A stretch of 34,951 nt of DNA, taken from a virus (Duplodnaviria; Heunggongvirae; Uroviricota; Caudoviricetes). A program made the position numbers and the translations under genes. Shown one piece after another: positions 19,298-26,777 of this stretch (the stretch's first letter is position 1; each line of letters opens with the position of its first letter). The DNA lies in the IMG/VR virus record IMGVR_UViG_2740892423_000023, positions 1 through 34,951 of that record. One strand, 5' to 3'. Below the pieces are notes generated by a model. The model made no database searches. It saw only the letters and a program-made list of their open reading frames with translations, and was not told where the DNA came from.

Positions 19298-20949
19298 CCT
19301 CCTGAACCAAAACGCCCGTCACGGTCACGCCCGGTGCTGCGTGGGGTGTGAATCTGAAATTTTGCGCTGCGCGATACCGCCAGCGTCCACAGCATGTGCA
19401 GACAGTCCGGGCCATCATCGTGGTCGGCTTTGGGGTAGTGGCGCAGCTGGTCAATCAGCGTCTGATGTGTGTGACTGATACGAATCAGGCCGTTGGCCAT
19501 ATGCGGCTGAAGGGATTCGATACGCAGTGCCTTATCCTCCAGCGGGATGACCGGCAGCGCCGGAACCGGCACGCCCAGCGCCGCCGAACGCTCAACCAGC
19601 ACGGTACGCAGAAACTCCTGAAACTGGACGGACTCAAACGACCAGCACAGACAGTGATATTCCCGCTGATACTTAATCACGTCTTCGATAAGTTTGTTTG
19701 GCAGACGTCGGCGGATATCGGCTTCAACCACATCCAGAATGCCGGTAAAGCGGTTAAAGCCCCCCACGAGAATGGCCGACGGGTCGCGGTTTTTGTTTTT
19801 CTTCCCGAGGCTGGGGTCAACAGCGCCGTAGAATACCCATTCATCAAGACGGTTAACCCAGAATTTAATGCAGCCCGCAAACAGCGCGTCTTCACCGCTG
19901 ACCGGGTCGTTCTGGTATTCAGAATCAAAGGTGTCATGACCGTCACGGACACGGATTTTCATCAGCGCCAGCAGGGGACGCGCCGCCCATGACACCACTG
20001 ACCCGGCGAGCATGTCGGCTTCGTTCTGCCGGTAAAGTGCCTCCGCCGCTTCCGGCTGTTTATTGCGGATGAGTTCTTCCCACTCGTCCCACAGCTTCAT
20101 GTTGGCAGGCCACTGAATAACAGCCTTAAAGCGGGCCGTTTTCCACATCGGGTTATTGAGTGTGCGCGACAGCACGGAGTCGTAATGCAGGATGGTTCCG
20201 ATATAAATAATATCGGTTTTACCGCCAGCCTCGCCCAGCGGCATCACAGTTTTGGTGAGCCAGTCATGCAGCTTGTCGCGCTGCTCCGGGTTACGCACCA
20301 TCTCGTCGTTCTCGATGTCGTCGAGGATGACCAGGTCAGGACGGTACGGACCGTGGCGCAGACCACGCAGTTTTTTACCACTACCGGCAACGGTCACCTT
20401 GATATTGTTGGCCGTGACGATGGTCCCCATACGCCAGACGCGCCCCTGTCCGCACACCTCCGGGAAATCGTTTTTTAAACGGGGGTTAAATTCCAGTTCA
20501 GCCTTGATGGCTTCCAGCATCGGATAAGCCTGGTCGATACTGTCCATAATGATGACCGGGTAATGCTTAATGGCCCGGATAATGGTCCACAGGGTAAACA
20601 GCTGAGTCACCAGCGTGGATTTTGCTTCACCACGGGGCGCGGCGATGGCGTCGTTCTCCGGGGCCGGGCTTGCCACAACCTGTGGCAGACGGCTGAACAG
20701 GTATTTATGCAGCTCGCTTTTTGCCGGGTTGCGGACGTAATGCGGGAAATAGTTTTCGACAAAATAATCGTAGCCCGTCACCGGGTCGCAGACTGCCGCC
20801 CGGCGGGCCTGTGTGGCCTGCGGGTTAACATCGAACCCCAGACATTCAGCCTCGATGGTCTGGCGGAGGTTGGCGATGTATTCCTGTAAGCTTCTCTGAA
20901 ACTCTTTAATGGAAAGTTTACGTTTTGCCACGTCACACCTGGTATACAA
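19291..20949 (-). CDS. Terminase large subunit
   Basis: 552-aa ORF; deviant Walker A (AAPRGEAKST), Walker B-like LVILDDIENDE; start is TTG 20949 or GTG 20931 (AGGTG RBS). Confidence 0.8.
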   Translation of the reverse strand: MYTRCDVAKRKLSIKEFQRSLQEYIANLRQTIEAECLGFDVNPQATQARRAAVCDPVTGYDYFVENYFPHYVRNPAKSELHKYLFSRLPQVVASPAPENDAIAAPRGEAKSTLVTQLFTLWTIIRAIKHYPVIIMDSIDQAYPMLEAIKAELEFNPRLKNDFPEVCGQGRVWRMGTIVTANNIKVTVAGSGKKLRGLRHGPYRPDLVILDDIENDEMVRNPEQRDKLHDWLTKTVMPLGEAGGKTDIIYIGTILHYDSVLSRTLNNPMWKTARFKAVIQWPANMKLWDEWEELIRNKQPEAAEALYRQNEADMLAGSVVSWAARPLLALMKIRVRDGHDTFDSEYQNDPVSGEDALFAGCIKFWVNRLDEWVFYGAVDPSLGKKNKNRDPSAILVGGFNRFTGILDVVEADIRRRLPNKLIEDVIKYQREYHCLCWSFESVQFQEFLRTVLVERSAALGVPVPALPVIPLEDKALRIESLQPHMANGLIRISHTHQTLIDQLRHYPKADHDDGPDCLHMLWTLAVSRSAKFQIHTPRSTGRDRDGRFGSGGW

Positions 20950-20983: not shown

Positions 20984-21484
20984 TTAACTGAAATTATCCT
21001 CAAGCTCTTTAGCGAAGCCTTCGAGCACCTCAAGAAACGGGGCATACTGTGCCGGGTGACGCTCCTTGATGAACGCGCCGAGCCGCTGCACCACTTCCAG
21101 TGCCGTGGCGAGCCGGTCGGTTTCCGGCAGGATTTTTTTACTGCTGGCCACCGCCTTACTGAGACTGTCAGACAGACTCGCCAGCAGTTCGACGGACTCC
21201 TGCGGCGGGATGTCCGGGTTCTGGTTCAGCCGTTCAAGCGTCGTCTGACACTTCACCACCAGACTGATAAGCACGGTGCGGGCGACACTTTCCAGCCCGT
21301 CACCGGCGAGCGCGTGAGCGGCACGCAGCTTGTCCCAGTCGTCGCCGTTCTTCATCGCCTGCGTTTTCCAGCGCCGCGCGGTGTCGTGCGGCACGGCGTA
21401 CTTCATGGCGACGATATCCAGCGGAAGCTGGTCAAAGATGTACCCGTTACGGACTTTGTCCCTGATATCCTGTGACCACGCCAT
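20984..21484 (-). CDS. Terminase small subunit-like protein (Mu gp27-like, DUF1804-like)
   Basis: 166-aa ORF MAWSQDIRDKVRNGYIFDQLPLD with AAGGA RBS, immediately upstream of large terminase. Confidence 0.6.
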   Translation of the reverse strand: MAWSQDIRDKVRNGYIFDQLPLDIVAMKYAVPHDTARRWKTQAMKNGDDWDKLRAAHALAGDGLESVARTVLISLVVKCQTTLERLNQNPDIPPQESVELLASLSDSLSKAVASSKKILPETDRLATALEVVQRLGAFIKERHPAQYAPFLEVLEGFAKELEDNFS

Positions 21485-21690
21485 TAAGTGTCCTTCTGAG
21501 CCTGTTCAATCAGGCATTTAACTTCGTCAGGATTTTCAAGAACATACACGTTTTTCCCGGTATCCAGTTCAATGACCGTGCCACCATATGCACCGCACTG
21601 ACGGTAAAAATGGGTGATGCGTTCAGCGAGCACCATGACAGCGCCAGCACCTCCTGAACCTGTGTATTCCGTAAATCTGATAATGCTCAC
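21484..21690 (-). CDS. Small hypothetical protein (start uncertain: GTG 21690 or ATG about 21633)
   Basis: ORF 21484-21771 overlaps the lipoprotein gene; likely internal start. Confidence 0.35.
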   Translation of the reverse strand: MSIIRFTEYTGSGGAGAVMVLAERITHFYRQCGAYGGTVIELDTGKNVYVLENPDEVKCLIEQAQKDT

Positions 21691-21709: not shown

Positions 21710-21892
21710 TCAGCTCTGTGAACACTGCCGGATGCCGTCAATAATCCGGCAGACCTGCGCCGCCGCGTCAAACAGCTGGCCCGCCCTGTTAATGTCTGTG
21801 CATCCCACCGGAAGCAACATCATCAGAAACAGGGCCAGAACACAGCGCGCGGCTTTACGTGGCGTTCTGTGGGTCCAGTGACTTCTGTTCAT
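21710..21892 (-). CDS. Small predicted lipoprotein (possible o-spanin-like lysis protein)
   Basis: 60 aa: basic N-region, hydrophobic CVLALFLMMLLPVG followed by Cys (lipobox-like), directly after endolysin. Confidence 0.45.
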   Translation of the reverse strand: MNRSHWTHRTPRKAARCVLALFLMMLLPVGCTDINRAGQLFDAAAQVCRIIDGIRQCSQS

Positions 21893-21905
21893 AACCCGTC
21901 CCGCA

Positions 21906-22283
21906 TCAGCGTTTTAACTGGAAATGAGGCCCGTCTTTCAGCGTTTTCCAGTCTCCGCCCCATTCGATGGCGACACCCAGCTCTGCGGCAGCCTGTTTAA
22001 AGGCACGGGCGATTTTTTCGTATAACGGCCAGTCCCATGAAATGGTGCTACCAACGTAAGCCACGACATCAACGGCATCGCCAGTAAGGTGACGGCTGTT
22101 CATGGTCTGGCTCTTGCCTTCAGCGACAAGTTGTTTCTGACGTTCTTTCGTGCGTAAACCTTCGGTAATACCAAAATCGACGTCCGACAACGCCAGCGCA
22201 CGGCGTACAACCGCCACCAGTTGTGGCTTTACGCCAGCCAGATTTTTCTCGCTACGTTGACTGAAACGGAATTTTTCCGACAT
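21906..22283 (-). CDS. Endolysin, peptidase M15-like (L-alanyl-D-glutamate peptidase type)
   Basis: ORF 21906-22334; start refined to ATG 22283 (MSEKFRFSQRS) with GGAGGT RBS; SRHLTGDAVDV and WGGDW...DGPHF motifs. Confidence 0.75.
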   Translation of the reverse strand: MSEKFRFSQRSEKNLAGVKPQLVAVVRRALALSDVDFGITEGLRTKERQKQLVAEGKSQTMNSRHLTGDAVDVVAYVGSTISWDWPLYEKIARAFKQAAAELGVAIEWGGDWKTLKDGPHFQLKR

Positions 22284-22285
22284 AT

Positions 22286-22564
22286 TTACCTCCGCAGTAA
22301 CGAAAGGATTTTTGACAAATTCCCGTGCGCCCACACGATAAGCGCACAGAAAACCAGATTCAGCGCCACAACCAGCCAGCTGGAGTGCGTGTATGTACCG
22401 GACAGCCAGCGGAACGGGATGATGATGTAGCCGAGCATCAGCCAGTACGCCAGCCAGGTAATCATCGGCTTATGCGCCGCACCGTGGCGACGATACACAA
22501 ACAACCCCAGCACAATGGCGAGACACAGCCAGACGTTCACGATACCGGCAAGGCTACTTTCCAT
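22286..22564 (-). CDS. Holin-like membrane protein (3 predicted TM helices)
   Basis: ORF 22286-22570; ATG 22564 with GGAGGGGG RBS; three hydrophobic segments and basic C-terminus; precedes endolysin. Confidence 0.5.
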   Translation of the reverse strand: MESSLAGIVNVWLCLAIVLGLFVYRRHGAAHKPMITWLAYWLMLGYIIIPFRWLSGTYTHSSWLVVALNLVFCALIVWAHGNLSKILSLLRR

Positions 22565-22946
22565 TTCCACCCCCTCCGCCGCGCAGTCTGGAAAACAGGC
22601 CGAACAGCGATGAAATTTCCTGTTGATAAAGAAAGGTCAGTATCTTGATGGATAACGCCGAGACACCGACCGCACACAATGCATCGAGCGGCTTGTCGTT
22701 GTAGTGGGTCAGCCACTGCATCAGTGACGCAGCCACGCCAGCCCCCAGAACGCCAACCACAAACGCGACGAGCAGGTGGATGGCCATTCGCCAGACCGGG
22801 ATTTCTTTCTGTTGCGTGACAACAAAAAGCGCCCCGGCAAACGCGCCCACCACGACCCCGAAATCGGTATTGGTGAGAAGACCAAACACACTGGCACCAC
22901 CGATGGTGACTGCCACAGCTCCGCCGCCTGATAAGGGTTCAGACAT
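22554..22946 (-). CDS. Membrane protein (about 4 TM helices), possible holin/antiholin
   Basis: ORF 22554-23006; ATG 22946 (MSEPLSGGG) with AGGAG RBS; Gly/Ala/Val-rich hydrophobic segments. Confidence 0.45.
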   Translation of the reverse strand: MSEPLSGGGAVAVTIGGASVFGLLTNTDFGVVVGAFAGALFVVTQQKEIPVWRMAIHLLVAFVVGVLGAGVAASLMQWLTHYNDKPLDALCAVGVSALSIKILTFLYQQEISSLFGLFSRLRGGGGGNGK

Positions 22947-23133: not shown

Positions 23134-23421
23134 TTAAAGGGAAGCGAGTTTTAATGGTGGCTTATAACACGCCTGCGCAAGCAGGTTAGCTCTTTCCACG
23201 GCTTTACGCATTTCCCGTTCTGCGTCCAGCATCCTGTTTACGGCTGACAGCACTTCATTATGATTCGTTTCTGACTCCGGCCTTTGGGCCTGTCTCGCCA
23301 GATAACTGGATAAATTACATATCTCAGCATGTCGGCGACGGGCTGCATCCCGGGCCTTGTCTGAAAATGCGGTATATTCACCGAGTGCTGCGTAGTCGAT
23401 ATTGGTGTCAGAACTCATCAT
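23134..23421 (-). CDS. Hypothetical protein (95 aa)
   Basis: ORF with AAGGAGA RBS immediately after the mor terminator; no family recognised. Confidence 0.5.
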   Translation of the reverse strand: MMSSDTNIDYAALGEYTAFSDKARDAARRRHAEICNLSSYLARQAQRPESETNHNEVLSAVNRMLDAEREMRKAVERANLLAQACYKPPLKLASL

Positions 23422-26329: not shown

Positions 26330-26490
26330 TTCAACTCCTCCCGACGACGTTCCTGAAGTTCCAGCATTGCGGCCCGGAAATCCTGCCACCATTCCTCATC
26401 GGCAACGGGGCTGTTTCGCTCCAGCACCTTGTCCGCATCGGCAATCAGTCTGGTCAGGCTCTTATCGCTTATTCTGGTTTGCTGGTTCAC
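26326..26490 (-). CDS. Small hypothetical protein (54 aa)
   Basis: Hand translation from GTG 26490 with AGGAGG RBS: VNQQTRISDKSLTRLIADADKVLERNSPVADEEWWQDFRAAMLELQERRREELK. Confidence 0.4.
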   Translation of the reverse strand: MNQQTRISDKSLTRLIADADKVLERNSPVADEEWWQDFRAAMLELQERRREELK

Positions 26491-26777
26491 TGCGCCGCCT
26501 CCTGTTCATTTTTTTCACTCCGGTATACCAAAATCACGACATCACCTACGGGGATAACGCGGGTTGGTTCTCCCGGCTCTATGCTGTCGATATCGAAGGC
26601 CTCAAAAAACGCATTCATTGCCTTCTGCTGCTGCGTCTGTTTACGGTGCTTATTCCATGTTTTCAGGAATACAAGGGACAGCCACATCCCGGCGCGGAGC
26701 ATGATGTAACACCAACCGAGAAGAGCGATGCCTGCATTCATGGCTATATCTATCGTTATCGTTTTATCAATGACCAT
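26487..26777 (-). CDS. Small membrane protein (96 aa, hydrophobic N-terminal half)
   Basis: AGGAGG RBS; hydrophobic ITIDIAMNAGIALLGWCYIMLRAGMWLSLVFL. Confidence 0.5.
   Translation of the reverse strand: MVIDKTITIDIAMNAGIALLGWCYIMLRAGMWLSLVFLKTWNKHRKQTQQQKAMNAFFEAFDIDSIEPGEPTRVIPVGDVVILVYRSEKNEQEAAQ

Follow-up and report, generated by a model that had tools for sequence, protein, structure and literature searches.

The window analysed here is the whole of IMG/VR virus record IMGVR_UViG_2740892423_000023 (Caudoviricetes), positions 1 to 34,951. It contains a lysis cassette of four genes, A, B, C and D, all on the minus strand and read in that order from 22946 to 21710. The last of these, gene D, encodes a lipoprotein-like protein of 60 amino acids (aa). 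We propose, tentatively and at slightly less than even confidence, that D fills the spanin slot of the cassette as an outer-membrane lysis factor that has no phage-encoded inner-membrane subunit, and that the native Mu-type lysis module has been replaced.

Cassette endings with D or with spanins

The replacement of spanins by D is seen when the cassette is compared with those of phages that share its holins. A tblastn search with the product of gene B, a holin-family protein, returned 127 phage records. HK639 and mEp390 have the same holin pair and an epsilon15-type endolysin, followed by an 89-91-aa protein with an N-terminal transmembrane (TM) segment and an overlapping small lipoprotein, both of which are annotated as “Rz-like spanin.” SaltyDalty has a short overlapped i/o-spanin pair behind a GH108-like endolysin. 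Among the IMG/VR loci, L220 encodes holin_8, holin_3_7 and M15 proteins and then a lambda-type Rz with an embedded Rz1, and L264 has another Rz/Rz1 pair.

To compare endings across the whole set, 65 non-redundant holin-seeded loci were classed by the way in which the cassette ends. D alone was found in 43 of the 65 and a two-component spanin alone in 16, and six loci had neither. No locus had both (0/65, or 0/59 of those carrying D or a spanin pair), a mutual exclusivity with a Fisher p of 1e-10 over the 65 loci, uncorrected for shared ancestry. Cassettes with M15 endolysins and those with GH108-like endolysins are found with either ending, never with both. When the same detector was applied to 117 non-redundant D-centred contexts (the D-seeded set), a spanin pair was found in none of them. 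Given that D stands in the slot that two-component spanins hold in sister cassettes, it is most likely the protein that breaks the outer membrane.

The D-seeded set also reveals what accompanies D. Homologues of Holin_8 and of Holin_3_7 are each present in 111 of the 117 contexts, and in a few divergent D loci a single PHROG 126 holin is found in place of the two. The endolysin is of the M15 type in 76 contexts and of the PHROG 315 type, which we take to be GH108-like, in 38; a third type, with matches to tail-lysozyme/endolysin PHROGs, occurs in two. The sole constant companions of D are “a holin” and “an endolysin,” and no particular membrane protein is constant. D alleles that are ~87% identical occur with two unrelated holin systems, holin_8/holin_3_7 in locus L030 and the PHROG 126 holin in L031. 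Because near-identical alleles are associated with unrelated holins, there appears to be no specific phage membrane partner that is conserved with D. The gene is the last lysis gene, downstream of the endolysin gene, in Mu-like prophages, phiP27, phiSTEC1575-Stx2k and pPE4, and in ~70% of the 117 contexts it starts 1-14 nucleotides (nt) past the endolysin stop codon or overlaps it (ATGA).

Two side observations concern the make-up of these cassettes. In a group of near-identical Mu-like prophages (L010 4459-5004; L011, L014-L017, L019 and L021-L024), a 181-aa GH108-like endolysin replaces the M15 enzyme. These prophages keep the same holins and D, which then overlaps the endolysin stop codon (ATGA), a clean swap of the endolysin within the cassette. 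In other loci, toxin genes lie inside or beside the D-type cassette, including those for heat-labile enterotoxin IIa, LT-II-like A/B pairs, a pertussis-like toxin, and Stx2e or Stx2k (L178 2922-4062; L211 3943-5089; L217 3942-5087; L212 4448-5666; L001 324-1559). Toxin release may be tied to the D lysis module.

The same cassettes could be read in another way, which we consider unlikely: D could be an accessory late protein that affects lysis timing, modifies the outer membrane or blocks receptors, the last of which would prevent superinfection or the loss of progeny on debris. The phages would then be spanin-less and rely on shear, low outer-membrane stability or some other factor. Small phage lipoproteins with exclusion roles do exist (T5 Llp, and Cor of phi80 and N15). 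Consistent with an accessory function, D or its lipobox Cys has been lost in L218, in L217 and in the six loci with neither ending, and the gene is not annotated in the closest RefSeq genome. In addition, 13% of phages have no spanin, and 31 genomes have a lipoprotein gene but no linked i-spanin (Kongari 2018, PMC6139136). A function of this kind should be independent of spanins, however, yet D and spanin pairs never co-occur in the holin-seeded or the D-seeded loci. Moreover, D travels with the lysis cassette across different tail and packaging modules, and not with receptor-binding genes: it is shared by phages with tail genes of the myovirus type (the Mu-like prophages and phiP27) and by the backbones of phiSTEC1575-Stx2k and pPE4, in which the packaging genes differ. 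It is also closely coupled to the endolysin gene (by a gap of 13 nt or an ATGA overlap), with no promoter-like site scored immediately upstream.

The cassette of the window, in which we propose that D is the outer-membrane factor, comprises the following genes.

22554..22946, minus strand: gene A, holin-family membrane protein, 130 aa, Phage_holin_8 (PF16931), PHROG 198
22286..22570, minus strand: gene B, holin-family protein with three TM segments, 94 aa from a GTG start, Phage_holin_3_7 (PF05449), PHROG 217
21906..22283, minus strand: gene C, endolysin, 125 aa, Peptidase_M15_4 (PF13539), PHROG 465
21710..21892, minus strand: gene D, lipoprotein-like terminal gene of the cassette, 60 aa, PHROG 7528

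A first-pass annotation of the window had described this order as a 4-TM protein, a 3-TM holin-like protein, an M15-like endolysin and a 60-aa lipoprotein, and the Pfam, PHROG and hydropathy results agree. Gene A matches PF16931 with 89.1 bits (gathering cut-off 26.4; E = 3e-25) and PHROG 198, “holin,” at E = 9e-42, and its product has four hydrophobic segments (residues 7-25, 27-46, 49-78 and 86-107). Gene B overlaps the stop codon of gene A and has an alternative ATG start at 22564. It matches PF05449 with 62.0 bits (gathering cut-off 25.4; E = 5e-17) and PHROG 217, “holin,” at E = 2e-31; three hydrophobic segments are evident from its hydropathy, and its homologues are annotated as holins in HK639, mEp390, phiP27 and SPN1S. 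By profile, both A and B are members of holin families, and their holin activity is putative. The same annotation had allowed that the 60-aa protein and one of the membrane proteins might match known spanin families, giving a canonical cassette. In hidden Markov model searches D matched no spanin family, and the membrane proteins matched holin families (in Pfam and PHROGs, with nothing significant in NCBIfam).

Gene C matches PF13539 with 48.9 bits (cut-off 25; E = 1e-12) and PHROG 465, “endolysin,” at E = 4e-74, and shares 86-91% identity with its counterparts in phiP27, phiSTEC1575-Stx2k and pPE4. Its translation includes the motif SRHLTGDAVD (H-x6-D, in SRHLTGD) and a C-terminal His in GPHF, which are presumably the Zn ligands, as in LAS enzymes. 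We looked for an N-terminal hydrophobic segment in gene C and found neither a signal nor a signal-arrest-release (SAR) segment. The product is thus predicted to be a cytoplasmic endolysin that needs a hole-forming holin.

The 60-aa protein D

D is a real gene under purifying selection, based on a match to PHROG 7528 (function unknown; E = 2e-40, with residues 1-59 aligned to profile positions 1-59 of 60) and on a ratio of nonsynonymous to synonymous change (dN/dS) of 0.32 over 79 distinct alleles. The protein has no match to any Pfam family at E ≤ 1, including Lysis_col, to any NCBIfam family or to any curated spanin family, and a sequence search of the Protein Data Bank returned noise only. 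A HMMER pass over 1.84 billion representative proteins recovered just 13 D representatives. From a profile search of a set of 5.8 billion proteins we obtained 202 clusters at 90% identity, all of them named “hypothetical” or “lipoprotein,” with hosts in Escherichia, Salmonella, Citrobacter, Yersinia, Enterobacter and Cronobacter. More than 270 D loci occur in IMG/VR. A megablast of the cassette against a phage collection gave no match, the scan of genome contigs for D gave one locus, and the P0018 scan of viral contigs gave no match. The family alignment is too diverse for pattern scans, and the conservation figures reported below are from a 24-sequence alignment of diverse D homologues (A3).

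The sequence of D is MNRSHWTHRTPRKAARCVLALFLMMLLPVGC followed directly by TDINRAGQLFDAAAQVCRIIDGIRQCSQS, and the gene starts 13 nt past the stop codon of endolysin gene C. Three parts of the protein can be distinguished.

21803..21892, minus strand: signal-peptide part, residues 1-30, with a basic n-region and an h-region
21800..21814, minus strand: candidate lipobox L-P-V-G-C, residues 27-31, as read from the sequence (Cys31 codon at 21800-21802)
21713..21802, minus strand: mature D, 30 residues, C-x16-C-x8-C, with no Pro, a net charge of 0, Thr at +2, predicted to be helical

Five Cys residues had been counted in the first-pass annotation, but D has four (residues 17, 31, 48 and 57), and only C31, C48 and C57 are conserved in the family. 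The invariant positions of the alignment are R12, L19, L23, G30, C31, C48 and C57. Hydropathy indicates a single hydrophobic segment, residues 14-32, and the C-terminal 28 residues are polar. The signal half is unusually conserved. It begins with a basic n-region, M-x-R-x-H-W-T-H-R-x-P-R, and continues into the h-region; its pattern in the alignment is M-x-R-K-H-W-T-H-R-x-P-R, then A-L-V-A-I-L-V-P-F-L-L-V-G-C. Positions conserved at ≥90% make up 15 of 30 in the signal part (16 of 31 with Cys31) versus 3 of 29 in the mature part. Over the 79 alleles, dN/dS is 0.42 in the signal half and 0.24 in the mature half, with proportions of nonsynonymous differences (pN) of 0.131 versus 0.147 and of synonymous differences (pS) of 0.27 versus 0.45. 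The lower pS of the signal-coding half (window 21803-21892) could reflect recent recombination, or a constraint that acts on the nucleotide sequence or the RNA.

Most members of the family have a canonical lipobox (LVGC, LAGC or LMGC), and the Mu-like subfamily to which the D of the window belongs has LPVGC, with Pro at -3. It is conceivable, but quite improbable, that LPVGC is not a substrate for lipidation, and that D of this subfamily is instead signal-anchored, or is processed by signal peptidase I to a periplasmic peptide, such as an antiholin-like regulator. The Pro at -3 is outside the consensus lipobox, [LVI][ASTVI][GAS]C (PMC6139136), and the n-region of D is long and highly basic. 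Furthermore, in the accessible part of the spanin tables of that paper there is no PVGC, PLGC or PAGC lipobox, and PSGC matches occur only outside the signal peptide. On the other hand, G30 and C31 do not vary, the canonical motifs prevail in the family, and unusual lipoboxes such as AWAC have been proven functional (PMC6139136). The Mu-like subfamily also shares its mature Cys pattern and its position with the canonical members.

Across the family, the residue at +2 is Thr, Val, Ala or Ser. Residues such as these at +2 (and not Asp) lead to sorting of a lipoprotein to the outer membrane. We infer that D is lipidated at Cys31, that, with Thr rather than Asp at +2, it is sorted to the outer membrane, and that it has a role in disrupting that membrane.

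AlphaFold2, run on the 24-sequence alignment, models the mature part as one continuous helix with a predicted local distance difference test score (pLDDT) of 65-73 (~70), which says just that it is helical. For the phiP27 homologue of D, Jpred predicted 25 of 30 residues to be helical (Kongari 2018, PMC6139136). We considered whether D could be an amphipathic or cationic peptide and rejected the idea: the hydrophobic moment of the window allele (0.20) is the same as the shuffle mean, and the net charge of mature D ranges from -4 to +3 across the family, so that charge is not conserved. C48 and C57, invariant in the 24 homologues, are periplasmic Cys residues open to intermolecular disulfides. 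By analogy with spanins, this conserved pair suggests that D forms disulfide-linked oligomers.

Some alleles depart from this pattern. In L217 (6268-6450) the lipobox Cys is replaced by Gly (LLVGG), and all that L218 (4164-4406) retains of D is a remnant that is out of frame; D may have decayed in prophages such as these. Annotation of the family is also incomplete. The 60-aa gene is without annotation in the closest RefSeq genome, that of E. coli STEC346 (L004 3195-3465), and in the phiP27 RefSeq genome (NC_003356) an overlapping out-of-frame open reading frame (ORF), L32, is annotated in place of D (20679-20861).

Search for an inner-membrane partner

All ORFs of ≥35 aa, from every ATG, GTG and TTG in six frames of the whole 34,951-bp window, were screened for two features, a lipobox and a lone hydrophobic segment at the N-terminus. 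On the coding strand, D alone has a lipobox. A type II membrane i-spanin or an embedded Rz1 frame, neither of which had been found in the first-pass annotation, was absent both from the cassette and from the rest of the window. The annotation had added that the outer-membrane step was unaccounted for. This is borne out to the extent that no i-spanin is recognisable, but D, located in the spanin slot and never found with a spanin pair, is the obvious candidate for that step. A cognate i-spanin was also not found in any of the 117 D contexts, and a scan of the complete phiP27 genome yielded no credible i-spanin anywhere.

Two proteins of the window were considered as spanin components and rejected. 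The 96-aa protein at 26487-26777 (PHROG 667) has a strongly basic KTWNKHRKQTQQQK stretch right behind its TM segment, so its C-terminal domain should be cytoplasmic; it is also encoded in the early region, far from the cassette. The 95-aa coiled-coil-like protein at 23134-23421 has a weak match to an Rz-like PHROG (E = 0.29) and no TM segment.

The one published partner for a member of the D family is from phiP27. This phage has been catalogued as having a “separated” two-component spanin (o-spanin entry 20706-20861, i-spanin entry 20348-20542), which is a singleton in both subunit tables and, at 62 residues, has the shortest combined periplasmic length of 528 systems (Kongari 2018, PMC6139136). 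The o-spanin entry is a D homologue (57% identical), called from an internal Met downstream of the true start. The “i-spanin” is a 64-aa ORF with a TTG start (20348-20542; L001 3170-3364) and no PHROG match, and on the opposite strand there is a 90-aa ORF (L001 3154-3426) that matches PHROG 36812 at 5e-20. The 64-aa ORF was found only in copies of phiP27 (3 of the 117 contexts) and has no counterpart in the window. From these comparisons we conclude that the pairing looks spurious, probably an artefact, and that D is an orphan.

In ~35 contexts, the gene immediately upstream of D encodes a small membrane protein, tail-anchored and 37-60 aa long (PHROGs 4493/1115/3246; for example, L002 3326-3499 and L149 5662-5844). 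We rejected it as a D-specific partner, as it is absent from the window and is also found immediately upstream of the lambda-type Rz in L220 (4584-4721). The tail-anchored protein may be an accessory lysis protein that has gone unrecognised.

These searches bear on a further explanation, which we regard as somewhat unlikely, that D is an ordinary o-spanin with a partner that was not recognised, the two bridging and fusing the membranes. Candidates for this partner would be a protein of the host, D itself as an uncleaved precursor, or a non-canonical phage membrane protein, such as either holin-family protein or the tail-anchored protein of some cassettes. D has the attributes of an o-spanin in its putative lipoprotein signal, its +2 residue for outer-membrane sorting, its conserved periplasmic Cys residues and its position after the endolysin, and the phiP27 homologue is listed as one (Kongari 2018, PMC6139136). 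The location of the tail-anchored protein directly upstream of D is in line with this, and the conserved signal peptide would fit the role of a membrane-embedded precursor. However, with just 30 residues in mature D and only short loops in the holin-family proteins, these proteins cannot reach across the periplasm. The partner published for phiP27 is an unsupported TTG ORF of very few contexts, and the tail-anchored protein is missing from most contexts and is not specific to D. Near-identical D alleles occur with unrelated holin systems, and neither the window nor the complete phiP27 genome contains a candidate.

We return to the reading in which D is an outer-membrane lysis factor without an inner-membrane subunit. 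In this scenario, the SAR endolysin, the overlapped spanins and the releasin of the native Mu-type module would have given way to a mobile cassette of holin and endolysin genes, which lambdoid Stx phages carry as well. Late transcription would lead to production of the soluble M15 peptidase and of two membrane proteins of holin families, of which one presumably acts as the holin and the other as co-holin or regulator; the peptidase would reach the murein through the holes made by the holin. The 60-aa precursor of D would be exported via Sec, lipidated at Cys31 and, with Thr at +2, sorted to the outer membrane, where helical lipopeptides of 30 residues, each with two conserved Cys, would build up. 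Once the murein is gone, D would most likely break the outer membrane, acting from that membrane alone or together with a host factor.

The 30 residues of mature D would span ~4.5 nm as a helix and ~10 nm if fully extended. Because this tail is too short for the periplasm and no partner is conserved, D probably acts without a phage-encoded inner-membrane subunit. How it acts on the outer membrane is speculative. Disulfide-linked D oligomers might perturb the inner leaflet, or D might act like small lytic lipoproteins, for example the colicin release proteins, whose stable signal peptide matters.

Several points weigh against this proposal. The case for D is one of position and co-occurrence, and a literature search found no experimental paper on any member of the family. 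The exclusivity of D and spanins is in part lineage structure, given that an epsilon15-type endolysin is present in 13 of the 16 spanin-bearing loci. The six holin-seeded loci with neither ending, together with at least one allele that lacks the lipobox Cys (L217), suggest that D could be dispensable. The LPVGC lipobox of the window falls outside the published consensus, and mature D of the window is not clearly amphipathic, which leaves a mechanism like that of antimicrobial peptides unsupported. The extra small membrane protein encoded just upstream of D in ~35 contexts is a further complication. Finally, there is no explanation of how D, once exported, stays harmless until the murein is degraded.

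Comparison with known lysis systems

Of the steps of phage lysis, disruption of the outer membrane is understood least. So far the characterised agents are the spanins, which fuse the membranes, and a single disruptin, which is a cationic peptide; ~13% of surveyed phages have no identified outer-membrane solution (Kongari 2018, PMC6139136). Components A to C of the cassette are ordinary, and the D family was known before only as a singleton o-spanin with a doubtful partner. As a lipoprotein in the spanin slot without an inner-membrane subunit, D could represent a distinct class of outer-membrane disruptor. Several hundred prophage loci of E. coli, Salmonella, Citrobacter and Yersinia have the lone lipoprotein in this slot, Stx2e and Stx2k phages among them. 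The lipoprotein resides in the most tractable host for lysis genetics, and the question of the “spanin-less coliphage” is testable in E. coli. If the proposal is correct, the spanin catalogue would be corrected, with the “shortest spanin pair” of phiP27 becoming a one-component system, and annotation would improve for a gene that many records omit or give with an incorrect start. D would also be a minimal, exportable lipopeptide that breaches the outer membrane, with a bearing on toxin release from Stx and LT-II phages, in which toxin genes lie in or next to the cassette.

Mu has no holin: its lysis module encodes gp22, which is a SAR endolysin, the overlapped spanins gp23 and gp23.1, and the DUF2730 releasin gp25 (PMC9239132). 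The cassette of the window lies at the same genomic place in a transposable phage, between a Mor/C-type regulator and the DUF1804/terminase genes, but there D accompanies two genes of holin families and one for a cytoplasmic M15 peptidase. When the gene products downstream of the endolysin (D, E and DUF1804) were scanned, no DUF2730 match was found. The first-pass annotation had noted a difference from the Mu cassette and suggested module replacement. The difference is confirmed by the published Mu module, and the two holin-family proteins and cytoplasmic M15 peptidase, without DUF2730, make replacement the right reading.

The flanking genes are those of a Mu-like prophage. Upstream of gene A are a 95-aa gene, a Mor-family activator and GemA; downstream of D there is a 50-68-aa gene, then the DUF1804 protein and terL. 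A chromosomal Mu-like prophage of E. coli STEC346 (GemA, Mor, DUF1804, terL) matches the window at 98.6% identity. The 95-aa protein (window 23134-23421; PHROG 7152), encoded between the Mor-family gene and the first holin gene, is helical with no TM segment, and exists as two allelic types that are only ~44% identical among otherwise near-identical prophages. The 50-68-aa gene (window 21484-21690; PHROG 7691), which has a weak FlbD-like match (E = 0.0016), is located between D and DUF1804 in Mu-like prophages only, and its start codon is annotated inconsistently among genomes. Some sister prophages have a DNA methyltransferase gene between DUF1804 and terL (L005 4165-4905), which the window lacks.

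Like D, two-component spanins (lambda Rz/Rz1 and the pair of HK639, mEp390 and SaltyDalty) are encoded at the end of the cassette, right behind the endolysin, and D has conserved periplasmic Cys residues as they do, along with a putative outer-membrane lipoprotein signal. In contrast to these systems, D has no i-spanin gene and no sequence match to a spanin family, and its mature part is helical, Pro-free and too short for the periplasm. Whereas the signal sequences of o-spanins diverge within families (Kongari, PMC6139136), the signal peptide of D is as conserved as its mature part. Unimolecular spanins of the T1 gp11 type are encoded by a single gene with an N-terminal lipoprotein signal; D too is a single gene in the spanin slot, with a putative signal of this kind, but it lacks a C-terminal TM domain and, with 30 mature residues, cannot be anchored in both membranes.

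The disruptin gp28 of phiKT, a cationic amphipathic peptide of 56 aa, has no export signal and complements lambda spanin mutants. D is likewise a small single polypeptide in place of spanins. It differs in having a signal peptide and a candidate lipobox, a net charge of 0 and, in the window allele, no significant hydrophobic moment.

The colicin lysis or bacteriocin release lipoproteins and entericidin B are made as precursors of ~45-60 aa, which give rise to lipopeptides of ~30 aa that are lytic or permeabilise the outer membrane. In the bacteriocin release proteins, a stable signal peptide adds to the envelope damage. D is of a similar size class, and its conserved signal peptide would fit a comparable role, but it has no detectable homology to these proteins (no Pfam match at E ≤ 1) and is phage-borne, in a holin/endolysin cassette. 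In a possible, though doubtful, generalisation, D would be a third class of phage outer-membrane disruptor, a Sec/Lol-exported lipopeptide of ~30 residues that acts at the inner leaflet with no inner-membrane subunit and no membrane fusion. In enterobacterial prophages, Shiga-toxin phages among them, it would have taken the place of two-component spanins repeatedly. The conserved signal peptide of D might then be a second active product, as in the bacteriocin release proteins.

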